From Thermoplasmata archaeon (GTDB lineage Archaea; Thermoplasmatota; Thermoplasmata; Lutacidiplasmatales; UBA184), in NCBI GenBank assembly GCA_035504395.1, contig DATJRX010000042.1, positions 593 to 64,592 on the forward strand: a stretch of DNA of 64,000 bases. Reading direction: 5' to 3'. Below are positions 8,839 through 51,320 of this stretch, in pieces. The stretch's first letter is position 1; every line of letters begins with the position of its first letter. A model generated the notes under the pieces. It saw only the letters and a program-made list of their open reading frames with translations, was not told the DNA's origin and searched no databases. The translations under genes and the position numbers were made by a program.

Positions 8839-8839
8839 G

Positions 8840-10315: not shown

Positions 10316-10319
10316 GGCG

Positions 10320-11915
10320 ATGGACGCCACCTCGTTCGTCGGTCCCTTCCTGCCCGAGCTCGTCCTGCTCGCCGGCGCGCTCCTCGTCTTCCTGCTCGAC
10401 GTCCTGAAGCTCCGGCGGACGGAGTTCGTCGGAGGGATCGCGGCCGGGTCGACGCTCGTCGCGCTCGTCCTCGTGCTCGCCGACCTCCGGTTCGGCCCGA
10501 TCGCCGGGCTCGCGACGATCCCGGCGGGGCAGATCGATCGGGTGCCGGGCCTCGGGAGCGCGCCGCTCTACGCGTTCACGTCGTTCGGCCTCATCTTCCA
10601 GGCGATCTTCCTCGTCGCCGCGTTCCTGGTCGCCGTCGCGTCGCTGAGCCGGCCCTCGGACGAGCGGGGCGCTCCGATCTTCTTCGGGCTCTTGCAGGTC
10701 GCGACGCTCGGGATGCTGCTCGTGGCGCTCTCGTCCGACCTCATCTTCCTCCTCCTCGCGATCGAGGTCGTCAGCATCCCGTCGTACCTCCTCGCCGGCT
10801 ACACGCGCCGCGATCGACGCGGGCTCGAGGCGGCGATGAAGTTCTTCGTGATCGGCGCCCTCTCCTCCGTGCTCTCGTTCTTCGGCGCGTCGCTCCTCTT
10901 CGGGGCGTACGGGACGACGAACCTCTACCTGATCCGCGCGGCCGGCACGGCGGTCGGGACGCCGGTCCTCGTCCTGCTCGGCTACGCGTTCCTGATCGCC
11001 GGGCTCGGGTTCAAGGTCACGCTCGTGCCGTTCCATGCGTGGGCCGTCGACGTGTACGACGGGGCCCCGCACGAGGTCAGCGCGTTCCTCGCCGGGGGCA
11101 CGAAGAAGATCGGCATCTTCGCGTTCTTCCTCGTCTTCCTGGGTCCGGTCCTCGTCGTCCAGGCCTCGGGCACGAGCGGCTACGGACTGTTCGGGGGCTC
11201 GGTCGCCCTCGGACCGAGCGTCCAGCTCACGCTCGCGGTCCTCGCGGTCGTCACGATGACCGTGGGGAACGTCCTCGCGCTCCTGCAGAAGGAGATGAAA
11301 CGGATGCTCGCCTACTCGTCGATCAGCCAGGCCGGGTACATGCTGATCGGCATCGCGGTCGGCACCTCGCCCGCCCTCGCCGGCGCCACGCTCCAGGTCT
11401 TCGCGCATGCCCTGATGAAGACCGGCGCCTTCCTCGTGGTCGGGGCGGTCGCCGCGCTCGGCGTCGGGCCCCTCATCCAGGACTGGCGGGGCCTCGGGCA
11501 GCGCCGCCCGGTGCTGGGCGTCGCGTTCGCGCTGATGCTCCTCTCGCTCGCGGGGGTCCCGCTGACCGTCGGCTTCGTGTCGAAGTTCATCCTGTTCAGC
11601 GCGGCCGTCGACGCGCGCGGCTGGTTCATCTGGCTCGCCGTGGCCGGTCTCCTCAACAGCGCACTCTCCGTGTTCTACTACGCCCGCGTGCTGCGGGTCA
11701 TGTTCTTCGACGCCGCCCCCGCGCCGACCGCCGCGATCGGGGCCGTCGAGGGCGCGAGCGAGCCCGCGATCCTGCCGCTCGGGGGCCTCGGGTACGGACG
11801 GGCGGGCGCGATCGGGCTCATCGCCGCGCTCATCGTCCTGTTCGGCATCTACCCGCAGCCCGTGATCGGCGCGATCCAGTCCGCGGCGTCCCACTTCCTG
11901 ATCGCGGGAGCGTGA
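10320..11915 (+). CDS. nuoN: NADH-quinone oxidoreductase subunit N
   Basis: 531-aa polytopic ORF. ND2/NuoN-like (VPFHAWAVDVYDGAPHEVSAFL). Last nuo gene. Confidence 0.9.
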   Translation: MDATSFVGPFLPELVLLAGALLVFLLDVLKLRRTEFVGGIAAGSTLVALVLVLADLRFGPIAGLATIPAGQIDRVPGLGSAPLYAFTSFGLIFQAIFLVAAFLVAVASLSRPSDERGAPIFFGLLQVATLGMLLVALSSDLIFLLLAIEVVSIPSYLLAGYTRRDRRGLEAAMKFFVIGALSSVLSFFGASLLFGAYGTTNLYLIRAAGTAVGTPVLVLLGYAFLIAGLGFKVTLVPFHAWAVDVYDGAPHEVSAFLAGGTKKIGIFAFFLVFLGPVLVVQASGTSGYGLFGGSVALGPSVQLTLAVLAVVTMTVGNVLALLQKEMKRMLAYSSISQAGYMLIGIAVGTSPALAGATLQVFAHALMKTGAFLVVGAVAALGVGPLIQDWRGLGQRRPVLGVAFALMLLSLAGVPLTVGFVSKFILFSAAVDARGWFIWLAVAGLLNSALSVFYYARVLRVMFFDAAPAPTAAIGAVEGASEPAILPLGGLGYGRAGAIGLIAALIVLFGIYPQPVIGAIQSAASHFLIAGA

Positions 11916-37419: not shown

Positions 37420-37686
37420 CTACAGCAGGCCCTCTTCCATGACCTCGACCGACTCGACCTCGGGCACCTTGGCGAGGGCGTGCTCGGTCGACTCGAGGAT
37501 CCCGCCCGCGTCGTCCATGACGACCGAGACGAGCAGCGACTTGAGACCGTAGGCGATGTCCTTGACCTGCATCCCGCGGATCGTCACGCCGGCCGGGACG
37601 CTCGCCGCGACCTGCTTCGCGACGGCGTTCAGGTCGGTCTCGACGCCGTGCGGCATCAGGCGGAACAGGACGGCGACCTTGCCCAT
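37420..37686 (-). CDS. translation elongation factor aEF-1 beta
   Basis: 88-aa ORF MGKVAVLFRLMP...IAYGLKSLLVSVVMDD...VESVEV, the characteristic aEF-1beta length and pattern. Confidence 0.9.
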   Translation of the reverse strand: MGKVAVLFRLMPHGVETDLNAVAKQVAASVPAGVTIRGMQVKDIAYGLKSLLVSVVMDDAGGILESTEHALAKVPEVESVEVMEEGLL

Positions 37687-37886: not shown

Positions 37887-38714
37887 TCACTTCCTCGCCG
37901 GCGACCGCCGGCGCGCGGCCACCCGGGTGGCGAATATAAAGAGTACCCCGAAGAACGACACGATCCCGGCGACGTACCACACGGTGTACGACGGCGGGGC
38001 GCCCGGCACGAAGAACTGGACCGAGATCGACGTCGCGCCGCCGGCGAACGTGACGAGGCCGTGCTCCTGCGCGAGCGACGCGGTGAACGTGTGCTCCCCT
38101 TGGCTCAGGCCGAGCGTCGGGTACTCGAACGTCGCGGTGTAGTTCTCGCTCGGCGAGAGGTTCGGGATCGCGAGCGAGCCGACCGGCGTCCCGTCCAGGA
38201 AGATCGTCAGGTTGAACGCGGCGACCGCCGCGGACTTCCCGGTCTCCAGGTGGAGGGTCAGCGTGTACGGCTGGACCACGTGGAACACCCACGAGAAGTT
38301 CGCGGAGACGTTCGCCGACGCGTTCGTCGAGGAGACCTCGACCGTGAGGGTGAGCGTCTGCACGACGGTCCCGACGCTCACCGTGGTCGTGGACGGGGTC
38401 CCCGGCGTGAGGTTGCCGGACGCCGGGGTGACCGCCACGCCCGTCGTGTTCGTCCCGCCGATGGTGGCGAGCCAGGTCAGGTTGCCGACCAGCGTCCCGG
38501 CGGACGAGACCGCGGGGCCGCCGGTGCCGTTGATGAAGAACGTCTGGTTGGTGTTGGTCGACACGACCGTCGGGCCGGACAGGTTCCCGACGACCGGCGA
38601 GCTCGCCGCCAGCACGGGACCGGCGGGCGCCCCGGCCGCCGCCCCGGCGAACCCGGCCCCGAGGGCCGAGCCGAGGAGGAGGACGGCCGCGGCGACGAGG
38701 ATCCACGGCCTCAT
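37887..38714 (-). CDS. sequon-rich cell-surface protein with signal peptide and C-terminal TM anchor (CARDB-like)
   Basis: 275 aa from ATG 38714, which overlaps the aglB stop (ATGA). MRPWILVAAAVLLLGSALG signal, about 12 N-x-S/T sequons, C-terminal WYVAGIVSFFGVLFIFATRVAARRR. Confidence 0.75.
   Translation of the reverse strand: MRPWILVAAAVLLLGSALGAGFAGAAAGAPAGPVLAASSPVVGNLSGPTVVSTNTNQTFFINGTGGPAVSSAGTLVGNLTWLATIGGTNTTGVAVTPASGNLTPGTPSTTTVSVGTVVQTLTLTVEVSSTNASANVSANFSWVFHVVQPYTLTLHLETGKSAAVAAFNLTIFLDGTPVGSLAIPNLSPSENYTATFEYPTLGLSQGEHTFTASLAQEHGLVTFAGGATSISVQFFVPGAPPSYTVWYVAGIVSFFGVLFIFATRVAARRRSPARK
37933..37940 (-). promoter_or_regulatory. TATA-like element embedded in the 3' end of the glycoprotein CDS
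   Basis: Minus strand tttatatt is formed by the codons GTA CTC TTT ATA TTC, a run of A/T-ending codons in a GC3-rich gene. It is centred ~70 nt upstream of the Zn-ribbon ATG. Confidence 0.35.
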
Positions 38715-41700
38715 CGGCGCGTCCACCGCCGCGTGCGCCACCAGCGGTAGGTGAGCACCCCGACGACCAGGGCGATCGCCGGAACGAAGGAGAGCAGCGG
38801 CACCAGCCACGCCGGGCTCGACGGCGGCGGCGTCCCGAGGACCGGTCCGGTGACCGTCAACGGGTTCGTGCCGTTCGACGTATGCGGGGCGAGGGACGCG
38901 ACCGGGATCGGGAGCGCGACGAACGACTGGTACGCGCCGCTGTGGTTCGTCACCGAGGCCTGGACCGTCACGCTGCCGGGCACCACGAAGACCGGGGCGG
39001 CGGCCGTGAGCGAGACGTCGTAGGTGGAGTTCTCGAACGGCGTCAGCGAGATCGCGGTTCCGTTCACGCTCGAGCCCGACGTCGTGAACCCGACCGACCA
39101 GCCCTGGCCCTCGATCCGCGCAAGATCGACCACCGTGAGATCGACGGTCTCGACGGTGTTCCCGGTGTTCACGAGGTAGAACGGCACGCTCGCCGACGTC
39201 GGGCTGTCGACCGGCGCCCCGGCCGAGACGACCAGGACCCCATACACCGGGACCACCACGATCTGGAACGAGAAGGAACCGACCACGGTCCCGTTCGCGA
39301 GCTCGATCTGGACCTGTCCGTTCGGCTCGAGCGCGCTCGCGCCCGCCGGGATCTGGACCGTCATCGAGGCCGCGTAGGGCGCGGACCCGCCCCCGGGGTT
39401 CAGGGTGACGGACGTGAACGAGTACGAGAAGCCCCAGGACGCGGGGCTCCCTACGGCGTGGACGGTCACCGGGCTGTTCCCGATCGCGCGGATCGAGAAG
39501 GCGAACGAGGCCGAGCCGGGGGCCGCGACCGTGGCGGTGGCGCTACCGGTCACGGCGGCCGAGACGGCGTAGCTGTACACGTAGGAGAGGGCGAGGGTCG
39601 CGCCCACGTTCCCGTGGAGGATCGAGACCGGCATCGTCGCGCTCGCGTTGCTCGTGACCCCGTACGGGGTCCCGAACGAGGTCGCGGCGGCGACGTACGC
39701 GCCGACCGGGAGCGCGAGCTCGATCGGGGTGCCCGTCGCGACCCCGGGGAACGCGATGCGGGCACCGAGCGAGCTCGTGACCGTGACGTTCGCCGGCCCG
39801 AGGAGCGGGGCCGCGCCCGACGGAGCGGCCACGCCGATCGTCGCGGTCCACGCCGGCGACAGCGCGAACGTCACGACTCCGGGCGAGGAGAGCGAGACCG
39901 GGACCGTCGTGAGGTCGGCGAGCGGACTCGACGCGCCCCCGCCCGTGACGTAGACCGAGTAGTCGCCCGGCGCGAGCGCGACGGAGAACGCCCCGGTCGG
40001 GGCGGAGACCGTCGTCGCCGCGGTCGACGGGTACGGCCCGAAGAACGTGAGGTTGCCGGCGATCGCGCCGGGGACCCCGGACGCGGTGAGGGTACCGTTG
40101 AGGTAGACCGGTTGCGGGGCCGGGACCATGGTCACGCCGCAGGAGCTCGTGTTGTAGCCGGCGGTGCAGCTCGAGCCGGTCGCGGCCGTCCAGGCGGCGG
40201 TGTACACGCCGGCGGACCCGAGCTCGCGGGTCGTCGCGGACGCCGTGACTGCGTAGACGGTGTCCGCGGGGACCAGAACGGAGAACTTCCCACCCGAGAC
40301 CGCGATCGAGATCGTCGTGCCGTCCTTTCCGGTCAGCACGGCGGTCGTGTTGACCGCGAGGGCGACGTTCGCCGACCGTTCGAGCGTGCCCGTCAGGTCG
40401 ACTCCGGCGGTCCCGATCGCGAGCGCCGGCGAGACCTTCCCGCCCGCGCTGACGACCACGGGGGTGAGCGAGGCGTAGGTGGAGCTGCCGACCGTGACGG
40501 AGGCGTGGGCGGTGTAGGCGCCGGGCGCGACGTAGAACCCGTCGGTGTACGCGGTGCCGTTCACGGTGACGTTGAACGTCGGCGACGAGAGCCCGATCGA
40601 GGCGGAAGCGAGGGTCCCGCCGCTTGGGACGGAGACCGTCCCGGTCGAGTTCTTGAGCGTCGTCAGCACAAGCGAGACGCTGGCCGAGGTGCCCCCGATC
40701 GGAACGGTGAAGTTGACGGTCGAGGTCGAGCGATAGACCGTCGTCGCGTTGCCCGTCGGGGCCCACCCGCTGAGGGCGTAGGAGCCCGGGGCGAGCGCGG
40801 TGGAGAACGTCGGGCCCCCGAGGAGGGCGGTCGTGACCGCGGTCGCGCTCGTGGCGGTCGCGTTGACCCGCAGCACGTTCGCCGGGTCCCCAAGGACGCG
40901 GATCGTGACCGGGACCGGGCGGAGCGAGATCGGCAGGCTGGTGATCCCCGCCAGGGCGCCGGGGCTGAGGCCGCACTGGTTCGATCCGGAGTAACCGGTC
41001 GCGACCACGGACACGCAGTACGAGAAGGCCGGGCTCGGTAGCGCGGACGGGACGTACGCGGCGGCGACCCCGGCGGGAGAGGCGAGGACCGTGACGGACG
41101 GGCCGGCGGCCGTGCCCGCCGAGATCGTGACCTGCGCGCCCACCGCGGGGGCGAGGGTGCCGGAGGCGGTCGTGCTGCCGACGGTCGCGCTCAGCTCGAT
41201 CGCGGAGCTCGGTACCAGGCTGACGGTCGTGCCCGGGACGAGGCTCACGCGCGTGAGGGCGGCGAAGTTCTCGGAGTTCGGCTCGTTGATCCCCTGGACC
41301 ACGGAGAGGTTGTACGTGGCCGCCGGCAGGTAGAGCGCGAACGACCCGTTCACCGCCCAGGCCGACACGGGCACGCCGCTCGGGGTGTAGGCGGTGACCG
41401 CGGTCGCCGGCTCCTCGGACGGGTCCTCGGTCGCGACGGTCCCGCTGAGCCGGACCGCGGGCGCGAGCGCGAGGGTGAGGGTGGGGCCGGGCGCGAGCGC
41501 CGAGGCGACCAGCGACCCGACGGCGGTCGAGAGCGTCCCGCCGACGCGGGCCAGGACCGTGACCGTGTAGTTGGCGTACGGGAGCGCGATCGTCGCGACC
41601 CCCGCCGCGTTCGTGAGCGCCACGCTCCCGTTGCCGAGGGCGCTCTCGTAGGCGCCGATCGGCTCGACCGACGCGTTCGCGAACGAGGGGTAGGGAGTGA

Positions 41701-44700
41701 AGTCGACCGGGACCCCGGCGACCGGCGACCCGCCCGCGACCACCGATACCGAGGCCGTGGTGACCGGGCGGACCGTGAGGTTCTGCTCGAGCACCGTCGC
41801 CTCCGTGGCGAACGACACCGGGATCGTCGCCGACTGCTCCGAAGCGGTCGGGACGCTGGCGGTCAACGAGTAGTTGCCCGGCGGGAAGGTGCGCAGGGAG
41901 TACGTGCCGTTCGCGCCCGAGGTGTTCGTGACGACCGACCCGGTCGCGTTCGACAGGACGATGCGGGCGCCGGTGATGGGAACCCCGCCGGGCCCGTCCA
42001 CCGTGCCCTGGACCGAGGTCGCGGTGAGGCCGACGGACGAGTTCTCCTGCTCGGCCGGGGGCGGCTCGATCGTCAGCGCGGTCTGGGAGTAGTTGTACCC
42101 TCCGTAGAGGATGTCGTAGTTGTAGGTCCCCGGGGCGACGTTCGTGAACTGGAACGCGCCGCTGGCGTCGGTGGTCGTGACGAGCCGCGAGACGTTGTTG
42201 GGGCCCCAGAGCACGACCGACGCGCCCGACACGACCGGGTCCTGGGTCGGCTCGTAGGAGGTGCCGTTCGCGACGTTCCAGTAGACGAACCCGTGGACGG
42301 TCGATCCCCCGAGCACGATCGTCTCGGGGAGGTTCGGCGCGTTGAACGAGAGGGCGACGGACGGCGGGACGTAGAGGTGGAGGGTCTTCAGCAGCGTCGC
42401 GCCCTGCTGCGTGAGCCCCTGGAGGGCCCCGGTCGTGATGTTCAGCGTGTCGTTGCCGGGGGGGAGGACGAGGGAGAACGATCCGTCCGGGGCCGTGACC
42501 ACCGACTCGTGCGGGACCCCCCACTGGTCGAAGACCGTCACGCGGTCCCCTCCGATCGGGGCGCCGTTCGGGAGCTGAAGGTCCCCGAGCAGGGTCTGTC
42601 CGGGGTAGTACTCGAGCATCGACTCGCCGCCCGAGAAGTACTGGTAGGCGGACAGGTTCGCCTGGCCGCCCGAGCTCGCGGCGAGGGATCGGGCGCTCGG
42701 GGAGTTCATCGCGACCCCGCCGCTCGAACAGTTGGTCGCACCGGAGCCGGGCGCGCAGTAGTAGGCGGTCTGGTAGACGACCGCGAAGTGCTCGAGCATC
42801 CAGCCCGGCTCGACCGGGTCGCTCGCGACGCCGCCCTCGAGGCCCGGGATCCCCGCGGACTGGCCGATGTCCGTCCCGTTGTAGCCGAAGTACGTCCGGT
42901 AGATGAGCGAGTTATAGAACGGGGCGAAGTAGTTCACGTAGTAGTTGACCGGCGAGACGTCCGCCGGCACCGAGCCGAGCGGGTAGTAGTTCCCGTCCGA
43001 GCCGAGGACCGTGACGTTGAAGAAGCTCGTCGGAAGGCCGGCGCCGTTGATGACCCGGCCCGTCAGGTCCGCCGGCGCGTAGTAGATCCCGGTGTCCTGG
43101 CCGCTGAACGGGATCAGGCGGCTGTCGACCATGTCGTAGCGGATCGACCAGCCCGTGTAGAGCTGGATGTCGTTGTAGATCGTGGCCACGCCCGAGAGCG
43201 TCTGCGACGTGGCGATGAAGTGCGACATCACGAGGTACATCGCGTTGTCGTCGGTGAGCGTGCTCGGGTTGACCGGGAGGTAGACGTCGGGGTTCGCGAC
43301 GACCGCGTTGTAGTCGGCGCTCTCGTTGGTCATGTAGGAGTGGAGGCGGCTGACGTTGAGCCCGTCGCGCGCGAGGATCACGTTGAGGGACGCGGGGAGG
43401 TACTTCTCTCCCGACGCGAGCTGCTCCGCCTGCAGGAGGGTCGTCGCGAGGACCCCGATCGCGTTCGACTCGTTCTGCGCGAGGAGGAACTGGCCGGCGG
43501 GGTCGATCCCGTTCTGGAAGTTGTCGGCGACGCTCGGATGCTGGCCCTGATCGATCGCCTGGAACCCGTAGTCCCACCAACTGACGAAGGCGGGACGATT
43601 GGCGGCCGGGACGTTGGTGTCCTGCGTCGCGAGCCACGAGTACCCCGCGCTATCGTACAGGTTGGACGTGTCGAGGCTCGTGCCGGCGGCCCCGAAGTAG
43701 TTCGTCGCGGTGGACGAGTTGCCGCGCAGCCAGGTCGGCAGCGAATCGTAGACCTGGTCCGAGAATCCGGTCTTCGTGTTGCCCGGGATGCCCGCGTCGA
43801 TCCCGACCCAGACGTTCGGGAGCACGATCGCGACGATGAGCAGGAAGATCAGCACGTGGCGGGCCTTGAACGCCTTGCGGAAGGCGGCGAACTGGCTGCC
43901 GCGATCCGAGAGGGAGGCGACCGTCCGGCGCAGCGTCGGGTACCCCCCCACGTCGAGCGCCCGCTCGATCGCCTCGGCCGGAAGGAGGGCGAACGCGGGG
44001 GACCCGAGGAGGAAGAACTTCGCGGCGGAGATCGGGAGGTAGATCGACAGGACGGCGAAGATCAGGAAGACGATGTGCTGCCGCTTGAACCGCTGGCGGA
44101 TCAGCGCCCACACGAACAGCGCCACTCCGGCGAAGGCGAGGAAGAACGTGACGACCCCGTAGCCGACGACCAGCTGGTCGATCGACGGGGCCTGGGCCTC
44201 GGCGACGGTCGAGTAGATGAGGTTCTTGACGAAGTACCCCTGGCCCGTGACGATGCTCGTGAAGTAGCGCGGCTCGATGAAGAACAGGAAGAGCGCGGCG
44301 ACGAGCACGAGCCCGACGAGCGTCGGGATCGAGAAGACCCACGGGATGTCCCGCATCAAAAGGAACGGGAGCATGAGCGCGAGCGTCCCGAAGAACAAGA
44401 GGAGCGGAAGGTCGAACCAGGCCGAGAACTGGTGCTGCACGAGGTAGTAGGGAACCGCCATCGGGAAGCCGACGAGCCCGACGATCGCGGTCGTCACGTA
44501 GAGGCCGAACGAGTCGATCCGCCGCAGCCGCTCGATGATCATCGCGATCACGAGCGTGAGCCCGATCACGACGATCGCGTAGGTGTACCCCTGCCACGCG
44601 AGCGCGAGCGCCCCCATCGAGACCCCGGTGAACACCGCCCACTTCACCGCGGTCCGCTCGGTCCGCAAGAACGCGCGCAGCCCGGGCAGGTACTGCTTCG

Positions 44701-45307
44701 GGTCCCGATAGTTGGCGATCCAGCGGCGGGACCCGACCGCCTTGACGGTCCGGATGTAGGCGTAGATCGTGACGAGGATGATGAAGGTGTAGAACGAGAG
44801 ATAGTTCGCGTAGCCGAAGATCGACGAATCGATGTTCGCGCTCAGGAACGGAAAGATGATCGCGGCGATCAGGCCCATCCGCTTCGAGCTGATCTCCCGG
44901 CCGATCAGGTACACCGGGATGATCTCGAGCGCGGCCCACAGCGGTCCCTGAAGGTCGAGGAACCAGGCGCCGGCGACGACCGCGTTCCCGCCGAAGAACG
45001 GAGCGAAGACCAGGCCGAGGATCGCGTTCATCCAGTCGAACAGCGGCTCGCGGGGGTTGTAGCCGCCCACCGGGAAGTGGATCATCGGGTCGAACACGAG
45101 GTTCGCGTGGTTCGTGATGATGAACGTCGTGACGCGCGAGTGGTAGTACGAGTCCGAGCCGCCGGCGTAGGTGTAGAGCGGCCCGAACTGCTGGATGATG
45201 GGGTAGGTCCAGATGGTCCGGATCGCGAACGCGATGCCGATGGCCCCCAGAAGGATCGCGACCGTCCAGCCGTGACGGCGCCACCACCCGTATTGCGACC
45301 CTTCCAT
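38711..45307 (-). CDS. aglB: archaeal oligosaccharyltransferase AglB (STT3 family) fused to a ~1300-aa repeat-rich extracellular extension
   Basis: Uninterrupted 2198-aa ORF. N-terminal multi-TM region, EL5-type TVAE motif, WWDYG at residues 577-581 (nt 43565..43579). From about residue 910 there are repeated beta-sandwich-like units and a final TM plus basic tail. Confidence 0.9.
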   Translation of the reverse strand: MEGSQYGWWRRHGWTVAILLGAIGIAFAIRTIWTYPIIQQFGPLYTYAGGSDSYYHSRVTTFIITNHANLVFDPMIHFPVGGYNPREPLFDWMNAILGLVFAPFFGGNAVVAGAWFLDLQGPLWAALEIIPVYLIGREISSKRMGLIAAIIFPFLSANIDSSIFGYANYLSFYTFIILVTIYAYIRTVKAVGSRRWIANYRDPKQYLPGLRAFLRTERTAVKWAVFTGVSMGALALAWQGYTYAIVVIGLTLVIAMIIERLRRIDSFGLYVTTAIVGLVGFPMAVPYYLVQHQFSAWFDLPLLLFFGTLALMLPFLLMRDIPWVFSIPTLVGLVLVAALFLFFIEPRYFTSIVTGQGYFVKNLIYSTVAEAQAPSIDQLVVGYGVVTFFLAFAGVALFVWALIRQRFKRQHIVFLIFAVLSIYLPISAAKFFLLGSPAFALLPAEAIERALDVGGYPTLRRTVASLSDRGSQFAAFRKAFKARHVLIFLLIVAIVLPNVWVGIDAGIPGNTKTGFSDQVYDSLPTWLRGNSSTATNYFGAAGTSLDTSNLYDSAGYSWLATQDTNVPAANRPAFVSWWDYGFQAIDQGQHPSVADNFQNGIDPAGQFLLAQNESNAIGVLATTLLQAEQLASGEKYLPASLNVILARDGLNVSRLHSYMTNESADYNAVVANPDVYLPVNPSTLTDDNAMYLVMSHFIATSQTLSGVATIYNDIQLYTGWSIRYDMVDSRLIPFSGQDTGIYYAPADLTGRVINGAGLPTSFFNVTVLGSDGNYYPLGSVPADVSPVNYYVNYFAPFYNSLIYRTYFGYNGTDIGQSAGIPGLEGGVASDPVEPGWMLEHFAVVYQTAYYCAPGSGATNCSSGGVAMNSPSARSLAASSGGQANLSAYQYFSGGESMLEYYPGQTLLGDLQLPNGAPIGGDRVTVFDQWGVPHESVVTAPDGSFSLVLPPGNDTLNITTGALQGLTQQGATLLKTLHLYVPPSVALSFNAPNLPETIVLGGSTVHGFVYWNVANGTSYEPTQDPVVSGASVVLWGPNNVSRLVTTTDASGAFQFTNVAPGTYNYDILYGGYNYSQTALTIEPPPAEQENSSVGLTATSVQGTVDGPGGVPITGARIVLSNATGSVVTNTSGANGTYSLRTFPPGNYSLTASVPTASEQSATIPVSFATEATVLEQNLTVRPVTTASVSVVAGGSPVAGVPVDFTPYPSFANASVEPIGAYESALGNGSVALTNAAGVATIALPYANYTVTVLARVGGTLSTAVGSLVASALAPGPTLTLALAPAVRLSGTVATEDPSEEPATAVTAYTPSGVPVSAWAVNGSFALYLPAATYNLSVVQGINEPNSENFAALTRVSLVPGTTVSLVPSSAIELSATVGSTTASGTLAPAVGAQVTISAGTAAGPSVTVLASPAGVAAAYVPSALPSPAFSYCVSVVATGYSGSNQCGLSPGALAGITSLPISLRPVPVTIRVLGDPANVLRVNATATSATAVTTALLGGPTFSTALAPGSYALSGWAPTGNATTVYRSTSTVNFTVPIGGTSASVSLVLTTLKNSTGTVSVPSGGTLASASIGLSSPTFNVTVNGTAYTDGFYVAPGAYTAHASVTVGSSTYASLTPVVVSAGGKVSPALAIGTAGVDLTGTLERSANVALAVNTTAVLTGKDGTTISIAVSGGKFSVLVPADTVYAVTASATTRELGSAGVYTAAWTAATGSSCTAGYNTSSCGVTMVPAPQPVYLNGTLTASGVPGAIAGNLTFFGPYPSTAATTVSAPTGAFSVALAPGDYSVYVTGGGASSPLADLTTVPVSLSSPGVVTFALSPAWTATIGVAAPSGAAPLLGPANVTVTSSLGARIAFPGVATGTPIELALPVGAYVAAATSFGTPYGVTSNASATMPVSILHGNVGATLALSYVYSYAVSAAVTGSATATVAAPGSASFAFSIRAIGNSPVTVHAVGSPASWGFSYSFTSVTLNPGGGSAPYAASMTVQIPAGASALEPNGQVQIELANGTVVGSFSFQIVVVPVYGVLVVSAGAPVDSPTSASVPFYLVNTGNTVETVDLTVVDLARIEGQGWSVGFTTSGSSVNGTAISLTPFENSTYDVSLTAAAPVFVVPGSVTVQASVTNHSGAYQSFVALPIPVASLAPHTSNGTNPLTVTGPVLGTPPPSSPAWLVPLLSFVPAIALVVGVLTYRWWRTRRWTRR

Positions 45308-45353
45308 CCGCCGCGACGCTCCCCCGGCCGGCGGCGCGCGAGAATGGGCGGGC

Positions 45354-45360
45354 TATAAAT
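45354..45360 (-). promoter_or_regulatory. TATA box candidate for aglB
   Basis: Plus strand tataaat (minus atttata) ~50 nt upstream of ATG 45307. GGGGGAG lies between. Confidence 0.5.
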
Positions 45361-45423
45361 AGGATGCTCCCGGCGACCGCCGGTCGCCGTCAGAGCGGCG
45401 CGCCGCGCGCGGCCGCCCGGACG

Positions 45424-45945
45424 TCAGTCGAGCGCGCGGAACCGGTAGAAGACGCGCCCGTCGCCGACGTCGTACGGCTCGACCGCGACGCGCGCCCCGA
45501 TCGCGAGCTCGCTCCACGGCTTCCCGTCGATCCGGCCGAACAGTCGCAGCGGGGCCCCGTCCAGGTCGACCAGCCCGACCGCGTACGGCACGTCGCCCTC
45601 CATCCCGAGCGGCGCCGCGCCGAGCACCGCGCTGAACGCGTAGATCCGGCCGTGCTCGGGAAGGTCGATCCACTCGAGGTCCTCCGCGTGGCAGCGCGGG
45701 CACGCGACGCGCGGCGGCCACTGGAGGTCGCCGTCCCGCCGACATCGGGTCGTCGAGAGGCGCCCCTCGCGCAGCCGGTCGAAGAAGCGGGAGAGCCGGG
45801 TCTCGTTCGCGCTCTCGAGCGGGAAGAAATCGAGCAGGAACGGCCGCTTCTCCCGGGGATGCTCGTCCGCCGGTTTCTCGAGCGGGGCCGCGGCGGTCGG
45901 CACGTCGGGTCCGGGGCCCCGGCGAGGCTTCGCGGCGACGCTCAC
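45424..45945 (-). CDS. DUF35 OB-fold/Zn-ribbon protein (thiolase-associated)
   Basis: 173 aa from GTG 45945, which overlaps the thiolase stop. Zn-ribbon CRRDGDLQWPPRVACPRC followed by an OB-fold region (YAFSAV...GLVDLDG...GRI). Confidence 0.8.
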   Translation of the reverse strand: MSVAAKPRRGPGPDVPTAAAPLEKPADEHPREKRPFLLDFFPLESANETRLSRFFDRLREGRLSTTRCRRDGDLQWPPRVACPRCHAEDLEWIDLPEHGRIYAFSAVLGAAPLGMEGDVPYAVGLVDLDGAPLRLFGRIDGKPWSELAIGARVAVEPYDVGDGRVFYRFRALD

Positions 45946-47126
45946 GCCGGTCCGCCTCCCTGGTAGATCATCACCGAGTGGACGTTCGCGCTCCCCGAGA
46001 GGTTGTGGACCAGGGCCCACTCCGGGTCGGGGACCTGCCGCGCGGGCGGGACGCGGCGCGCACACTGGTCGAACACCTCGACCGCCTGGGCGATCCCGGT
46101 CGCCCCCAGCGGGTGACCGCATCCGAGCAGCCCGCCCCGCGGGTTGACGACGACGTCGCCCCCGAGGTCCGAGCGGCCGTCCTCGACGAACGCGCCGCCC
46201 TCGCCGGGGCCGCAGAAGCCGAACGCCTCGTACTCCACGATCTCGGAGATCGAGAAGCAGTCGTGGATCTCCGCGAAGTCGAGGTCCTTCGGGCCGATCC
46301 CCGCGCTCCGGAACGCCTCCCGCGCCGCGAGGGTCAGTCCGGGCCACTCGCTCAGCGAGCCCGCATGCGCCAGATTGTGGAAGTCCGAGTACTGCCCGGT
46401 CCCGCGGACCCACACCGGAGCGTCGGTGTACTGCCGGGCGCGGTCGGCGGCGACCAGCACGACCGCGGCCGCTCCGTCGGTCATCGACGAGCAGTCGCCG
46501 AGCCGCAGCGGCGGCGCGACCAGGGGTAGGCCCTTGAGCTTGGCCCGAGGGAACGTCTTCGCGTAGAACTGGGCGTTCGGGTTCGAGTTCGCGAACCGAT
46601 GGTTCTTCTCGGAGACCGCCGCGAGCTGATCGTCCGTGGTGCCGTGCTCGAGCATGTGGCGCTGCGCGACCATCGCGAAGAACGGCGGGGCGGTCGCACC
46701 GCCCGGCCCGTCCCACGCCCGGTCCATCACGCACACCATCGAGGTGTTCGCCTCGGCCATCGAGGGGAGGTTCATCTTCTCCACGCCGACCGCCACCGCC
46801 ACGTCGGAGAGCCCCGCCGCGATGGCGGCGTACGCGGATCGGATCGCGGACTGACCGGAGGCGCAGGCGAGCTCGGTCCGCTGGACGATCCGATGCGGAC
46901 GCAGGCCCATCTGCTCGGCGGCGAACGGCGCCACGTGCGACTGGAACGCGAACCGCTCGGGCTCGGCGGCCCCGACGAACAGCGAGTCGACGTCCTCGGT
47001 GCGCAGGTTCGGGACCGCGCGGAAGAGTGCCGCGCCGACCTCCTGGGCGAGCTCGGCCCACGTGGCCGGCCGGACCCCGAAGGCGGTGGTCGCCCCGCCC
47101 ACGAGCGCGACCTCGCGGGCGATCAT
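45942..47126 (-). CDS. thiolase (archaeal/SCP-x type acetyl-CoA C-acyltransferase)
   Basis: 394 aa from ATG 47126 (GGAGGCGG upstream). Catalytic contexts ELACASG, IHDCF and GHPLGATG. Confidence 0.9.
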   Translation of the reverse strand: MIAREVALVGGATTAFGVRPATWAELAQEVGAALFRAVPNLRTEDVDSLFVGAAEPERFAFQSHVAPFAAEQMGLRPHRIVQRTELACASGQSAIRSAYAAIAAGLSDVAVAVGVEKMNLPSMAEANTSMVCVMDRAWDGPGGATAPPFFAMVAQRHMLEHGTTDDQLAAVSEKNHRFANSNPNAQFYAKTFPRAKLKGLPLVAPPLRLGDCSSMTDGAAAVVLVAADRARQYTDAPVWVRGTGQYSDFHNLAHAGSLSEWPGLTLAAREAFRSAGIGPKDLDFAEIHDCFSISEIVEYEAFGFCGPGEGGAFVEDGRSDLGGDVVVNPRGGLLGCGHPLGATGIAQAVEVFDQCARRVPPARQVPDPEWALVHNLSGSANVHSVMIYQGGGPA

Positions 47127-48259
47127 GCCGCCTCCCGGCGCACCGCGTCCGCCACCCGATCCCCCGCGGTCCGGGTGGAGACGGTACCCCCCTGATCGTA
47201 GGTCCGGGCCGCTCCGCTCTGGAGCGTCGAGGCGATCGCGCGCTCGAGCCGGTCGGCCTGGCGGCGGAGGCGGGCGTCGGCGTTCCGGTCCCCGAGCCAG
47301 CGGAGCATCTGCTCGAGGGCGAAGAACGTCGCGAACGGGTTCACCTGGTCCTTGCCGGCGTACTTCGGCGCGCTTCCGTGGACCGGCTCGAACATCGCGT
47401 GATCCTGTCCGATGTTCCCGCCGGAGGCGAACCCCATCCCCCCCTGGAGCACCGCGGCGAGGTCCGTGATGATGTCCCCCATCATATTCGTCGCGACCAC
47501 GACGTTGTACTGCTCGGGGTTGCGGATCAGCCACTGCGTGAACGCGTCGACGTATGCGTAGTCGCGCGGGATCTCAGGATACTCGGCCGTGCCGATCCGG
47601 TCGAAGGTCTCGCGGAAGAAGCGGCACCCCTCGAGCACGTTCGACTTGTCGACGCAGGTGACGCGGCGGGCCCCGTCGGCGGGCGCGCCCCGGGCCCGGG
47701 CCCGCGCGAGCTCGAACGCGAAGCGGATGACCCGCTCCGACCCCTTCTTCGTGACCACCCGCGTGTCGATCGCGACCTCGGTCTCGCCGGCCCGCCTTAG
47801 CCGCCCGCGGGCGGGCGTGTAGAGGTCCTCGGTGTTCTCCCGGACGATCACCATGTCGACGCGGTCGGGCGACCACACCTGGCGGTAGTCGCCGCTGATC
47901 CGATGCTGGACCCCGGGGTAGAGGCGGCACGGTCGGACGTTGGCGAACAGGTCGAGCGACTCGCGCAGGCCGAGGACGAGGGCCCGGCCGGCGATGTCGC
48001 CGTTCGGGAGCATCGCGCCCGGCCAGCCGACGGCTCCGAGGAGGATCGCGTCGGCGGACTGCGCGGCCGCCGCGCCTTCGGGCTCCCACTCGCGACCGGT
48101 CTTGAGGTAGTACTGTCCGCCCCCCGCATGCTCGGTCCAGTGCCACGGCGCGGGTCCGCCCTCGGCGAGCGCCGCGAGGACCTTGAGGCCCTCCCGGATC
48201 ACCTCGGGCCCGGTGCCGTCCCCCGCGAACACGGCGATCTCGTAGCCCGCGTCCTTCAT
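47123..48259 (-). CDS. isopropylmalate/homoisocitrate/tartrate dehydrogenase family (beta-decarboxylating dehydrogenase)
   Basis: 378 aa from ATG 48259, which overlaps the upstream stop. Motifs AVFAGDGTGPEV, VIVRENTEDLY, NMMGDIITDLAA and FEPVHGSAPKYAGK. Confidence 0.85.
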   Translation of the reverse strand: MKDAGYEIAVFAGDGTGPEVIREGLKVLAALAEGGPAPWHWTEHAGGGQYYLKTGREWEPEGAAAAQSADAILLGAVGWPGAMLPNGDIAGRALVLGLRESLDLFANVRPCRLYPGVQHRISGDYRQVWSPDRVDMVIVRENTEDLYTPARGRLRRAGETEVAIDTRVVTKKGSERVIRFAFELARARARGAPADGARRVTCVDKSNVLEGCRFFRETFDRIGTAEYPEIPRDYAYVDAFTQWLIRNPEQYNVVVATNMMGDIITDLAAVLQGGMGFASGGNIGQDHAMFEPVHGSAPKYAGKDQVNPFATFFALEQMLRWLGDRNADARLRRQADRLERAIASTLQSGAARTYDQGGTVSTRTAGDRVADAVRREAA

Positions 48260-48783
48260 GCCGGCGCCCCCGCGGAGGGGGTGCGGGCCGCCAGCTCGCG
48301 GCGGACGTGCTCGACGAGCCCGCCGGCCTCGAGGATGCGGAGCAGGTGGGGCGGCAAGGGGGGGAACGCGACGGAGGCCCCGGTCCGGACGTTCGTGACC
48401 CGGCCCTGCCCCATCTCGATCCGGGCCGTGTCGCCCTTCTCGAAGATCGCGCGCACGCCGGGGACCTCGATCACCGGGAGCCCCAGGTTGATCGCGTTGC
48501 GGAAGAAGATCCGCGCGAACGAGTCGGCGACCACCGCGCCCACGCCGATCGCGCGCATGGCTGCGGGGGCGTGCTCGCGGCTCGAGCCGCATCCGAAGTT
48601 CTCGCCGGCCACGAGGATGTCGCCGGGGCGGGCCCCCGCCGCGAACTCGGGGAGCGCGATCTCGAACACGTGCTTCTTGAGCTCCTCGGGATCGATCACC
48701 GTGAGGTACTTCCCGGAGATGATCCCGTCCGTGTCGACGTCGGCCCCGAGCGTCCACACCCGTCCCTCGATCACGTCCTGCAT
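48256..48783 (-). CDS. leuD: 3-isopropylmalate/homoaconitate dehydratase small subunit
   Basis: 175-aa ORF. GENFGCGSSREHA motif of the aconitase swivel domain. Substrate specificity is not assignable. Confidence 0.85.
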   Translation of the reverse strand: MQDVIEGRVWTLGADVDTDGIISGKYLTVIDPEELKKHVFEIALPEFAAGARPGDILVAGENFGCGSSREHAPAAMRAIGVGAVVADSFARIFFRNAINLGLPVIEVPGVRAIFEKGDTARIEMGQGRVTNVRTGASVAFPPLPPHLLRILEAGGLVEHVRRELAARTPSAGAPA

Positions 48784-48792
48784 CGATCGGCC

Positions 48793-50076
48793 TCAGAGCA
48801 TCGGGCGGTGGTCGGTGACCTCACCGGTGATGGCCGCCGCGACCGTCGCCGCGGGGGACATGAGATAGATCCGGGCCTGCTTGGCCCCCATCCGTCCGGG
48901 GAAGTTGCGGTTCGACGACGACGCGCAGGCCTCCTCGGGCGCGAGGAGCCCCATGTTCCCGCCGAAGCACGCGGAGCAGCTCGAGTTGGTGAAGACCGCG
49001 CCCGCTTCGGTGAACGTCTCGATGATCCCTTCCTTGAGGCACTGCTCGTAGATGCGGGTCGAGGCCGGCGACACGATGAACCGCACGCCGGGCGCGACCT
49101 TGTGCCCCTTCATCAGCGCCGCGCCCTCCCGGAGGTCCTCGATGCGGGCGTTCGTGCACGACCCGAGGAACACCTGGTCGACCTTCACGTGCTCGCGGGC
49201 GACCTCGGGCAGCGGGCGGACGTTGTCGGGCGAGTAGGGGCAGGCGACCATCGGCGGCATCCCGTCGACGTCGATCTCCACCTCCCGGTCGTACCGCGCG
49301 TCCGCGTCGGCCCACATGGGATGCATCGCGTGCTTCGCGGTGGTCGCGAGGTACTCGTACGTCTTCGAGTCGGGGGCGACCATGCCGCACTTGGCCCCCA
49401 TCTCCGTCGTCATGTTGCAGATCGTGAGTCGCTCGGGCATCGAGAGCGCCTCGATCGTCGGGCCGGTGAACTCGACCGACTTGTACGTGGCCCCGGTCGT
49501 GCGGATCTCGCCCAGGACCCGGAGGACCAGGTCCTTCGCGGTGACGCCCTTGTCGAAGTGGCCGCGCACCCGGACCCGAACCGTGGAGGGCACCTTGAGC
49601 CAGAGACGGCCCAGCGCGAGCACGGCCGCCATCTCCGTCGGACCGATCCCCGCGGCGACGGCCCCCATCGCGCCGAGGGTGTTCGTGTGGGAGTCGGTGC
49701 CGACGGCGAGGTCGCCGGGCACGACCCATCCGTTCTCCGCGAGGATCTGGTGGCAGATGCCGTGGTTCCCGACGTCGTAGAAGTGCGGGAGGTGGGTCTC
49801 CGCCGCGAACTTCCTCAGGATCCGGTGGAGCACGGCGGCCCCTTCGGTGGGGGCCGGGACCCAGTGGTCGATCGCGATCACGACCCGGTCCGGGTCCCAG
49901 ACGCGCTCGGCCCCCATCTGGTGGAACGGGGCGACCGTCTGGGCGCCCTGCTCGTGCATCATCGCGAGATCGACGTTGCCGTCGACGATCTGTCCTGGCA
50001 CCACGCGCTCGGACCCCGAGGCGCGCGCCAGGACCTTCTCGGCGAGAGTCATCCCGTGGCCGCTCGACGCGCTCAT
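48793..50076 (-). CDS. leuC: 3-isopropylmalate/homoaconitate dehydratase large subunit
   Basis: 427-aa ORF. Aconitase-family motifs (VGTDSHT, GSCTNARIEDL, CSACFG). Substrate specificity is not assignable. Confidence 0.88.
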   Translation of the reverse strand: MSASSGHGMTLAEKVLARASGSERVVPGQIVDGNVDLAMMHEQGAQTVAPFHQMGAERVWDPDRVVIAIDHWVPAPTEGAAVLHRILRKFAAETHLPHFYDVGNHGICHQILAENGWVVPGDLAVGTDSHTNTLGAMGAVAAGIGPTEMAAVLALGRLWLKVPSTVRVRVRGHFDKGVTAKDLVLRVLGEIRTTGATYKSVEFTGPTIEALSMPERLTICNMTTEMGAKCGMVAPDSKTYEYLATTAKHAMHPMWADADARYDREVEIDVDGMPPMVACPYSPDNVRPLPEVAREHVKVDQVFLGSCTNARIEDLREGAALMKGHKVAPGVRFIVSPASTRIYEQCLKEGIIETFTEAGAVFTNSSCSACFGGNMGLLAPEEACASSSNRNFPGRMGAKQARIYLMSPAATVAAAITGEVTDHRPML

Positions 50077-51320
50077 GCGCTCACCGCGGTGATGCCGACC
50101 GCATCCACCATCGCCCAGAAGTCGGCATCGGAGAGGCCCGGGCGCTCGAACAGGCGGCGGTACTCGTGGAGGAACCGGAGGAGGTCCTCCTTCGAACGGG
50201 TCTCCGTCTCCGCCTTGATCCGCCGGAGCAGCTCGAGGAGGAGCGGGTCGTTCGCCGTCAGGCCGCGCTCCTTCAACTTCTCCACGAGGGCGGCCTTCCC
50301 CGTGTGCTTCCCGAGGATCATCTGGCGGCGGGCGCCGACGACCTCGGGCTGGAGGGGCTCGTACGTGAGGGTGTTCGCGAGGATCCCGTGCGTGTGGATG
50401 CCGGCCTCGTGGGAGAAGGCGTTGTACCCGACCAGGGCCTTGTTGGCGGCGACCGGGATGCCCGAGAGCTCCTCAACGAGCCGGGACAGCTCGACGAGCC
50501 GCTCGGTCCGAAGGCCGGTGCGCACGCCGTAGAGCGACTCGAGGATCACGGCGACCTCCTCGAGCGCAGCGTTGCCGGCGCGTTCCCCGAGGCCGTTGAC
50601 GCAGACGTGGGGGGAGCGCGCGCCGCACTCGATCGCCGTGATCGTGTTCGCGGTGGCGAGCCCGAAGTCGTTGTGGCAGTGGACGGACAGGTCCTTCGGA
50701 TGGACGCGCCGCTGGAACTCGGTGAGGTACCAGCGGAAGGTCAGGGGCGTCATGATCCCGACCGTGTCGGCGACCACGAGCCGGTCGGCGCCCGCGTCCT
50801 GCACGTCGCGGTAGAGCCGCTCGACGAAATCCAACGGAGCGCGCACGGTGTCCTCGGTGACGAACGCGACGTGGAGACCCGCCTCCTTGGCCTGGCGCAC
50901 GGTCGCGACCGAGACCCGGTGGACCTCCTCCTGCGTCATCTTGAGCTTGTAGCGGAGGTGCACCTGGCTCGCTGCGACGAAGATCGCGATGTGCGTCGCG
51001 CCGCTGTCGATCACCGCCTGGACGTCCCGCGGCACGGTCCGCGCGGCCGCGAGGATCTGGCACTTGAGGCCCGAGCTCGCGAGGAGCCGCACCGCACGGT
51101 CCTCCTCGTCCGAGACCACCGGGATCCCCGCGTTCACGAGCGGGACCCCGATCTCGCCGAGCAGCGTCGCGATCCTCAGCTTCTCCTCGGGCGTGAAGTG
51201 GACCCCCGGCGTCTGCTCGCCGTCGCGCAGCGTCTCGTCCCAGAGAACGAGCGACTCGGGGATCCGACGCTCGGCGGCCGTCTCCGTGTGGTAGTTCTCG
51301 ACCAGGCGAGACGACTCCAT
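50073..51320 (-). CDS. homocitrate/2-isopropylmalate/citramalate synthase family, short form without LeuA regulatory domain
   Basis: 415 aa from ATG 51320. LWDETLRDGEQTPGV, HCHNDFGLATANT and a DRE-TIM fold. The AT island cttaatg (minus, 51344..51350) lies ~27 nt upstream, suggesting a leaderless mRNA. Confidence 0.85.
   Translation of the reverse strand: MESSRLVENYHTETAAERRIPESLVLWDETLRDGEQTPGVHFTPEEKLRIATLLGEIGVPLVNAGIPVVSDEEDRAVRLLASSGLKCQILAAARTVPRDVQAVIDSGATHIAIFVAASQVHLRYKLKMTQEEVHRVSVATVRQAKEAGLHVAFVTEDTVRAPLDFVERLYRDVQDAGADRLVVADTVGIMTPLTFRWYLTEFQRRVHPKDLSVHCHNDFGLATANTITAIECGARSPHVCVNGLGERAGNAALEEVAVILESLYGVRTGLRTERLVELSRLVEELSGIPVAANKALVGYNAFSHEAGIHTHGILANTLTYEPLQPEVVGARRQMILGKHTGKAALVEKLKERGLTANDPLLLELLRRIKAETETRSKEDLLRFLHEYRRLFERPGLSDADFWAMVDAVGITAVSA

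Follow-up and report, generated by a model that had tools for sequence, protein, structure and literature searches.

A 64,000-nucleotide stretch of DNA from a Thermoplasmata archaeon of the Lutacidiplasmatales, called the window here, encodes a giant form of AglB, the archaeal oligosaccharyltransferase (OST). One gene on the minus strand specifies an N-terminal enzyme module, an extension of about 13 beta-sandwich domains laden with N-x-S/T sequons, a second transmembrane anchor, and a short basic tail. Its stop codon overlaps the start of a gene for a small anchored protein with a CARDB-like domain, referred to below as the partner. Length, domain order, anchor, and partner are conserved across the class Thermoplasmata. 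That the fusion of AglB and extension is real and conserved is, in our judgement, close to certain. What is such an enzyme for? The reading we prefer, with a probability of roughly 55%, is that it is a bona fide giant-type AglB that forms a fixed-stoichiometry OST module with its partner, the array being a non-catalytic accessory.

One gene, conserved across the Thermoplasmata

The gene is located as follows.

38711..45307, minus strand: giant aglB coding sequence, 2198 amino acids (aa) plus TGA stop at 38711-38713; single frame, G+C content at third codon positions (GC3) 0.96

A first-pass annotation of the window had called one uninterrupted open reading frame (ORF) of 2198 aa here, and it was right: there is a single frame, its homologues are full length, and G+C content at the three codon positions (0.59/0.53/0.96) is uniform over the whole length. 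At the junction between enzyme and extension (~42600), the frame does not change and the codon-position signature is continuous. Could so long an ORF nonetheless be an artefact, whether of a chimeric assembly, a missed stop or frameshift, or chance? The window has a G+C content of 68-76%, and in the DNA of this locus, at 71%, long spurious ORFs do arise: 1021 codons at 42293..45358 on the plus strand, antisense to the giant aglB, and 993 codons out of frame at 39543..42524 on the minus strand. A shorter one of 204 codons lies at 38143..38754 (plus strand). An antisense frame that shares third-codon positions has a GC3 of ~0.99, so that GC3 alone cannot choose the strand. However, hundreds of assemblies obtained independently carry the uninterrupted gene, as do complete genomes of cultured species, the codon signature crosses the junction without a break, and AlphaFold models of the extension are confident. 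Because the gene order is kept in essentially every locus with enough flank, an assembly chimera or missed stop can be excluded. A comparison of AglB lengths, suggested by the first-pass annotation as a check, found the same fusion in orthologues throughout the lineage and beyond it. With homologues and codon signature both speaking against it, an artefact of any of these kinds is vanishingly improbable.

Who else carries this gene? A search of 5.8 billion proteins gave 543 matches, and the figures for the window's family rest on the best 120 of them. These come from many independent metagenomes, are labelled Thermoplasmata archaeon, and share 52-72% identity with the window protein at a query coverage of 96-100% (nearly all 99-100%). 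All are 2178-2211 aa long except two, of 2109 and 2135 aa. When loci were compared in one-genome-per-species GTDB contigs, the best 80 all belonged to Thermoplasmata metagenome-assembled genomes, including Candidatus Lutacidiplasma silvani. The loci put the window within the Lutacidiplasmatales or close to them; these are acid-soil archaea with ~69% G+C (PMC9287336). The giant AglB is not an innovation specific to this soil clade, a possibility that was considered and rejected: giant AglBs occur throughout the Thermoplasmata. When 1.84 billion representatives were searched by HMMER with residues 1-905 as the query, 278 proteins matched at E < 1e-30, and the full-length matches of this STT3 search are mostly 2000-2775 aa, at only 29-41% identity. 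Names could be assigned among these proteins and among relatives of a Ferroplasma member, as follows.

Thermoplasma acidophilum, CAC12262.1 / Q9HJ37: 2081 aa, conserved hypothetical membrane protein
T. volcanium, TVG1271204 / Q979C6: 2076 aa
Ferroplasma sp., WP_309214711.1: 2056 aa
Oxyplasma meridianum: 2113 aa
Caldiplasma sukawensis: 2093 aa
Cuniculiplasma spp.: giant homologues
Aciduliprofundum sp. MAR08-339, AGB04633.1: 2081 aa, putative membrane protein, required for N-linked glycosylation

All giant homologues inspected have a WWDxG motif near residues 570-590 (farther along in proteins with an N-terminal insertion), 30-88 sequons mostly past the core, and a C-terminal transmembrane segment followed by an aromatic/basic tail. 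At 27% identity, the window protein is collinear with that of Aciduliprofundum over 2133 residues; its collinearity with two further representatives extends over ~2190 residues, and its alignment with the Thermoplasma proteins is clear to about residue 1160. With giant AglBs spread across the Thermoplasmata and collinear, the architecture must be ancient and class-wide rather than an invention of the window's lineage; judged by sequence comparison, the giant type is ancestral to the class and conserved across it.

The names given to these orthologues are inconsistent and include GT39, conserved hypothetical membrane protein, carboxypeptidase regulatory-like, and STT3 domain-containing. In the T. 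acidophilum protein, Pfam STT3 is not detected even at E <= 10, while PMT_2 is found; PMT_2 is also the sole Pfam record of the T. volcanium protein. It looks as if annotation has systematically missed the probable AglB of Thermoplasma.

The STT3/AglB enzyme module

In the enzyme part, the catalytic motifs lie in external loops (ELs) of the membrane domain and in the external core that follows it. Here and below, AfAglB-L is the AglB-L of Archaeoglobus fulgidus.

43748..45307, minus strand: STT3/AglB multi-transmembrane catalytic domain, residues 1-520; Pfam STT3, AfAglB-L profile match
45152-45154, minus strand: D52, first-external-loop catalytic Asp
44798-44806, minus strand: EL2 site N168-Y-L170, aligned position of the metal motif
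44198-44209, minus strand: TVAE, residues 367-370, EL5 motif
42599..43747, minus strand: extracytoplasmic AglB core region, residues 521-903, 8 sequons; core-like Pfam match, structure matches
43565-43579, minus strand: WWDYG, residues 577-581, motif in the external core

What makes this protein an AglB? Pfam STT3 matches residues 47-449 with 38 bits (cut-off 24.5), and a match to AglB_core-like at residues 570-620 falls below threshold. A family profile of residues 1-905 matches AfAglB-L (3WAJ/5GMY) at E 3e-21, with residues 6-617 collinear with 4-596; 3vu0 and 3vgp also match around WWDYG. D52, in the sequence GGSDSYYH, aligns with GGNDPWYYYR of AfAglB and is present in 118 of the 120 homologues, the other 2 being N-terminally truncated. 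T367, A369, and E370 of the EL5 motif are invariant, as is WWDYG (120/120), the sole such motif in the window. The placing of TVAE in the EL5 position and of WWDYG at 577-581 by the first-pass annotation is therefore correct. Fold-level homology together with these three catalytic motifs supports membership in the AglB/STT3 family, as far as sequence can tell. Within that family, the giant protein lies outside the archaeosortase A-associated subfamily modelled by TIGR04154 (archaeo_STT3), which it matches over residues 17-623 only, with 223 bits against a cut-off of 450.

Known structures of AglB, PglB, and STT3 have the N terminus in the cytoplasm and the WWDxG domain outside. Taken with the collinearity to AfAglB-L, this predicts a cytoplasmic N terminus and an external WWDYG domain for the giant protein as well. 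The external core (521-903) was poorly modelled in isolation and was not used for fold comparison. In most of the enzyme part, column conservation lies at 0.74-0.89; it falls to 0.62 in residues 851-900. No other region of the protein is as well conserved as the transmembrane domain, and this makes catalytic competence likely. We consider it probable that the giant AglB is an active OST.

One site does not fit so well. At the EL2 position of the DxD metal motif, 118 of 120 family members have N168-Y-L170, although the alignment of this loop is uncertain. In other giant AglBs the site reads DHD or DWD (distant homologues, aligned with D161/H163 of AfAglB) or DGRMH (Thermoplasmatales). Is the giant protein of the window's family then a catalytically impaired pseudo-OST with a structural or binding role, while another enzyme carries out glycosylation? 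The loss of a motif that distant giant homologues retain would agree with this, as would the low TIGR04154 score. But D52, TVAE, and WWDYG are invariant in the best-conserved region of the protein, and no second STT3 was found within the 64-kb window. Moreover, the Thermoplasmatales orthologues deviate at EL2 too, yet N-glycosylation of surface proteins has been demonstrated in T. acidophilum (Vinogradov 2012, as cited in PMC11407970). D160, 8 residues upstream of N168, is nearly invariant and may substitute as a metal ligand; the enzyme may use a different ligand set in a rearranged metal site, or it may be altered. An impaired enzyme is improbable on balance.

The beta-sandwich extension and second anchor

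Beyond the core, the chain continues with three further elements.

38897..42598, minus strand: extension, ~13 beta-sandwich domains, residues 904-2137, 33 sequons; AlphaFold, Pfam, HHalign, Foldseek
38750..38806, minus strand: C-terminal transmembrane helix, residues 2168-2186; hydropathy 2.41, AlphaFold helix 2168-2194
38714..38749, minus strand: aromatic and basic cytoplasmic tail YRWWRTRRWTRR, residues 2187-2198; near-invariant in the family

The extension is rich in Ser, Thr, Ala, Gly, and Val and almost devoid of charged residues. The first-pass annotation had taken residues 910-2160 for a chain of units resembling carboxypeptidase-regulatory or Ig-like domains. A beta-sandwich array it is, but Pfam CarboxypepD_reg (PF13620) matches only the first three domains (three stretches within ~1000-1170, 79.6-99 bits against 32.3), Pfam has no match for those beyond ~1170, and domains D12 and D13 are of a separate type. 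In all-against-all HHalign comparisons, D1-D5 and D7-D11 are interrelated, each being linked to at least one other at 75-96% probability, with many pairs lower; D6 is marginal, with a weak link to D1. No tandem repeats were found in the extension at the DNA level. Since its domains are related at the profile level only, a recent tandem-repeat expansion was rejected and the extension is best seen as an ancient, diverged array.

Two AlphaFold models, made from alignments of 27-29 homologues and with domain limits taken from DSSP strings, agree with this picture. Confidence (predicted local distance difference test) averages 83 over residues 1400-2198 and is 80-93 in the beta-domains from ~904 onward. 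All-beta domains (904-2137) are followed by a low-confidence linker and a helix at 2168-2194. Foldseek returned only generic beta-sandwich arrays, at template-modelling scores (TM-scores) of 0.05-0.3. Among them are alpha-2-macroglobulin, complement and TEP MG domains, Gram-positive pilins, the Bacillus anthracis TIE protein, SdrD, ciliary ASH-domain proteins, SlaB, and Haloferax csg. These matches being generic and of low score, no specific function is drawn from them.

How does the chain end? The C terminus reads ...PAWLVPLLSFVPAIALVVGVLTYRWWRTRRWTRR, so the transmembrane helix and basic tail claimed earlier are indeed there, the helix being backed by both hydropathy and AlphaFold. Helix and YRWWRTRRWTRR tail are almost invariant in the family, and distant homologues have analogous tails of W/Y plus R/K. 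Both predicted cytoplasmic ends of the protein are Trp/Arg-rich and family-conserved, GWWRRHGW (45280-45307) at the N terminus and YRWWRTRRWTRR (38714-38749) at the C terminus. The likeness may stem from a motif with a common role in interaction or at the lipid interface, or the positive-inside rule may be all that lies behind it.

The sequons are distributed very unevenly. There are 41 in the giant AglB, in line with the earlier estimate of about 40 with most in the extension: 0 in the transmembrane region, 8 in 521-905, and 33 in 906-2160. Shuffled versions of the extension have 12.1 +/- 3.0 (maximum 22), a 2.7-fold enrichment. Per 1000 aa, the extension has 26 sequons and the partner 43, compared with 0-10 in other ORFs of the window. 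Family members have a median of 45 per protein, and ~20 sequon positions are conserved in at least 85% of the 120 homologues. There are also conserved Cys pairs, 1431/1445 and 1714/1723, which fit an extracytoplasmic location. The extracellular topology assumed for the repeats thus accords with the collinearity to AfAglB-L, the absence of sequons from the transmembrane region, the Cys pairs, and the closing transmembrane helix and basic tail. The array is probably extracellular and glycosylated, and its self-glycosylation is plausible.

The translationally coupled CARDB partner

Directly after the giant gene comes the partner.

37887..38714, minus strand: partner gene, 275 aa plus stop at 37887-37889, type-I membrane protein; directly downstream of aglB
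38646-38702, minus strand: signal-like N terminus; hydrophobic segment
38076-38231, minus strand: CARDB-like domain; Pfam CARDB
37917-37985, minus strand: C-terminal transmembrane segment, then basic tail; hydrophobic segment

At the junction the sequence reads ...cgc cga tga / atg agg ccg..., with a 4-nt ATGA overlap. Every part of the earlier description of this gene, a 275-aa protein with a signal peptide, about 12 sequons, a CARDB segment, and a C-terminal anchor, has been borne out; the 12 sequons compare with 3.0 expected. Against a Pfam CARDB (PF07705) cut-off of 22.7, the window partner scores 33.1 bits, and the partners of T. volcanium and Aciduliprofundum 28.0 and 36.9.

Is the pairing more than a local accident? 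The partner adjoins aglB downstream in all loci with enough flank, with an ATGA or GTGA overlap in most. In T. volcanium and Aciduliprofundum, too, the giant aglB is followed after a 4-nt overlap by a CARDB protein, of 259 and 257 aa, respectively, while all other aglB neighbours differ in these genomes. Both proteins are homologous to the window partner (blastp E 1e-15 and 1e-11), and all three have a signal peptide, a PP(S/N)Y motif, a transmembrane segment, and a basic tail. The claim of coupling to a second anchored protein therefore extends well beyond the window. PP(S/N)Y stands directly before the C-terminal transmembrane segment in these three distant partners (PPSYTVWYVAG in that of the window) and is a candidate interface or processing motif. 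A search with the partner gave 228 matches, of which the best 120 are 265-292 aa long, belong to Thermoplasmata where an organism is named, and, if they have a name at all, are nearly all called "hypothetical protein" or "CARDB."

A partner kept at a 4-nt overlap where the other neighbours differ points to a two-protein OST module. Why a subunit rather than merely another substrate? It is the class-wide conservation of a protein of fixed length, translationally coupled to the enzyme, that favours a partner or subunit. For the two parts taken together, the partner as subunit and the array in an accessory role, we would still put the odds somewhat below even. That the partner arose as a duplicate of the C-terminal domains of the giant protein was considered and rejected: HHalign found nothing significant, its best match (E 0.017) covering the transmembrane anchor only.

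A proposed two-protein module and its alternatives

How might the module work? The N-terminal STT3 domain and the external WWDYG core would transfer a lipid-linked glycan to Asn-x-Ser/Thr. The chain would continue outside the cell as ~13 beta-sandwich domains and re-enter the membrane through the second transmembrane helix with its basic, aromatic tail, leaving the array tethered at both ends beside the active site. The type-I CARDB protein (257-301 aa), made from the same mRNA by stop/start-overlap coupling and hence in fixed proportion, would associate with the giant AglB in one OST module of fixed stoichiometry. Array and partner may both be N-glycosylated, probably by the attached enzyme during translocation, and together they would act as a non-catalytic, glycan-coated scaffold or shield and possibly as a platform for emerging substrates.

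Besides the altered EL2 site, several findings weigh against the module. (i) The extension evolves faster than the enzyme, with a column conservation of 0.50-0.66 as opposed to 0.74-0.89 for most of the enzyme. (ii) Inter-domain geometry in the AlphaFold models is uncertain (predicted TM-score 0.43-0.49). (iii) Neither extension nor partner has a Pfam match to ribophorin or DDOST at E <= 0.1. (iv) Shorter AglBs exist, of 1425 aa in Acidiplasma and ~1150-1290 aa elsewhere, which means that the full array is not indispensable everywhere. The Acidiplasma form has a truncated array but keeps the C-terminal anchor, and a ~1156-aa form stops after three beta-sandwiches, without anchor. Such short AglBs amount to a deletion series made by nature, and could reveal which domains the protein can do without.

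Might the array instead be the coat itself? On this alternative, the extension is a structural surface coat (glycocalyx) of these mostly wall-less archaea, glycosylated in cis while emerging, and the CARDB protein is a second coat component and substrate; the enzyme would both make the coat and belong to it. Much of the evidence is congenial to the idea: sequons are very dense, and this density is conserved (each protein of the window's family has 34-57, those of Thermoplasma and Ferroplasma 72-88), the composition is that of a nearly uncharged Ser/Thr/Ala/Gly/Val-rich chain, and the extension diverges in the manner of surface-exposed proteins. SlaB and Haloferax csg are among its Foldseek matches, if amid many generic beta-sandwich arrays. 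An abundance of membrane glycoproteins is a known feature of Thermoplasma (Yang and Haug 1979, as cited in PMC2952790). However, typical coat and adhesin proteins vary in repeat number, whereas here the whole class keeps to one length (2050-2200 aa) and one domain order, with collinearity at 27% identity. A coat of this kind does not imply a regular lattice. The double tether speaks against a coat fibre that protrudes, and with a 1:1 fusion the amount of coat would depend on that of an enzyme that is normally of low abundance. A primary role as a coat is unlikely, though it deserves to be taken seriously.

An array of CarboxypepD_reg, SdrD_B, and SpaA-like domains could also be an adhesin or a carbohydrate-binding arm, directed at polysaccharide, neighbouring cells, or mineral, with the fusion to AglB incidental. 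Gram-positive pilins, the TIE protein, SdrD, and large adhesins are indeed found by Foldseek, but as generic folds with TM-scores of ~0.1-0.3, and anchoring at both ends limits the reach of the array. Fusion, length, and partner are strictly conserved across acid soil, acid mine drainage, hot springs, and deep-sea vents, which hardly suits a niche adhesin. There is only a slim chance that this is the answer. Fixed length and order across the class, retention of the partner, and the double tether favour a defined structural role beside the enzyme over a variable fibre or niche adhesin, as the scaffold or shield of the two-protein module would have. It is quite possible, and compatible with the module, that the array contributes to the glycocalyx of wall-less cells.

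A bolder version of the module can be imagined. Both C-terminal transmembrane helices might dock on the STT3 bundle in a hitherto unrecognised multi-module OST holoenzyme, and the doubly tethered, glycan-coated arch might form a canopy over both active site and translocon exit. This would be an independently evolved analogue of the non-catalytic OST subunits of eukaryotes and of NOMO-type translocon-associated rods, and would double as a major protective element of the glycocalyx in wall-less Thermoplasmata. We offer it tentatively, as a rather unlikely scenario.

Putative promoter and neighbouring genes

Upstream of the giant gene is a putative control region.

45354..45360, minus strand: TATA-like box ATTTATA, 53 nt upstream of the aglB ATG; then conserved leader ~45328-45345

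ATTTATA is found at -52 to -56 in 57/62 homologous loci, and after it comes a ~16-nt G+C-rich stretch with the consensus GGTCTCGCGCGCCGCC, which in the window reads ATTCTCGCGCGCCGCC. Both position and sequence are conserved in this region (45321-45362 in the window), unusually strongly for intergenic DNA. Box and leader could be a promoter plus regulatory leader, and their conservation suggests that aglB and its partner form their own transcription unit.

What of the genes on either side? Read from their translations, the upstream flank (45424-50472, minus strand) encodes a DUF35-like OB-fold protein, an archaeal thiolase, an isopropylmalate dehydrogenase (leuB-like), and LeuD/LeuC-like proteins, and the downstream flank (37420-37686, minus strand) encodes aEF-1beta. 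Thiolase, DUF35-like, giant aglB, small protein, and aEF-1beta follow one another in this order in essentially every flanked locus. Membership in an agl gene cluster was considered and rejected: the flanking genes are housekeeping genes, and they are different in distant genomes. Elsewhere in the window (6925-11915, plus strand) lie three consecutive genes for large polytopic membrane proteins of 637, 491, and 531 aa, in a region of strongly negative AT skew; they look like antiporter-like subunits of respiratory complex I or of a Mrp-type module.

Comparison with known systems

Has such an AglB been described before? The first-pass annotation knew of no example, and our literature search likewise found no paper that deals with the extension or how far it is conserved, nor one on the second anchor or the coupled partner, though a mention in Vinogradov 2012 (T. 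acidophilum glycoproteins) or Nikolayev 2020 (a survey of AglB across archaea) is possible. The same design has nevertheless been in the databases since the Thermoplasma genomes (Q9HJ37, Q979C6). Being implicit in annotations since the first of these, the giant AglB is neither unique to the window nor categorically new. With the giant AglBs named inconsistently and the partner family almost uniformly "hypothetical," both could be renamed. Because the architecture occurs in cultivable T. acidophilum and T. volcanium, it is directly testable. It may also help to explain how wall-less acidophiles build and protect a glycoprotein surface.

The closest relatives are of course the database orthologues (Q9HJ37, Q979C6, AGB04633.1, WP_309214711.1). 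They have the same succession of STT3, sequon-rich beta extension, and transmembrane segment plus basic tail, and the CARDB partner where this was checked. They differ in having only 27-30% identity, and the Thermoplasma proteins have more sequons (72-76) and DGRMH at EL2.

With AfAglB-L, a chain of 875 residues, the giant AglB shares the multi-transmembrane domain, the EL1 Asp, a TIXE-type EL5 motif (TVAE), WWDYG, and an external globular region after the last transmembrane segment of that domain. It is ~2.5x longer, adding ~13 beta-sandwiches, a second transmembrane anchor, and a cytoplasmic tail. Set against AglB, STT3, and PglB generally, the window's family appears to lack the EL2 DxD/DxH at the aligned position (N-Y-L), has an obligatory, translationally coupled small partner gene, and falls below the TIGR04154 cut-off.

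What about S-layers? The S-layer glycoproteins Haloferax csg and Sulfolobus SlaA/SlaB are likewise rich in beta-sandwiches, laden with sequons, anchored at the C terminus, and substrates of AglB; as mentioned, Foldseek matched the extension to SlaB and csg at low TM-scores. In contrast to these proteins, the array is doubly tethered and of fixed length and domain order, and it has orthologues in species without an S-layer. Cuniculiplasma lacks one by electron microscopy (PMC5155288), so the orthologues in this genus make a pure S-layer role unlikely. The same point tells against the earlier suggestion of an OST built into the cell envelope, if that is meant in the S-layer sense. Neither the giant AglB, which ends ...PAWLVPLLSFVPAIAL..., nor the partner, with ...PPSYTVWYVAG..., was matched by any NCBIfam CTERM model, the search having covered the PGF-CTERM/archaeosortase signal.

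A eukaryotic protein of similar build is NOMO, a type-I protein of the endoplasmic reticulum with ~12 transthyretin/CarboxypepD_reg-like domains and a C-terminal transmembrane segment. Like NOMO and EMC7, the extension would place prealbumin-like sandwiches (about a dozen) followed by a transmembrane segment on the exoplasmic side of a translocation-competent membrane. Matches to NOMO Pfam models are sub-threshold (NOMO_5th 23.3 and NOMO_3rd ~15 bits, cut-off 27), and a weak one to EMC7_beta-sandw reflects the shared fold. The extension differs from NOMO in not being a separate protein, and no homology is claimed.

The comparison that bears most directly on the two-protein module is with the eukaryotic OST. 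Archaeal and bacterial OSTs are textbook single-subunit enzymes, while those of eukaryotes are multi-subunit machines in which ribophorin I/II, OST48/Wbp1, and Swp1 assemble around STT3. These subunits are type-I proteins with lumenal beta-sandwiches, a single C-terminal transmembrane segment, and a short basic tail, a topology shared by the partner and by the C-terminal end of the extension; the likeness is architectural only. If the module is real, a built-in ectodomain of >1200 residues, a second anchor, and an obligatory partner would represent an independent route to a "complex" OST, one in which, unlike in the eukaryotic enzyme, the catalytic chain itself covalently includes most of the additional mass.

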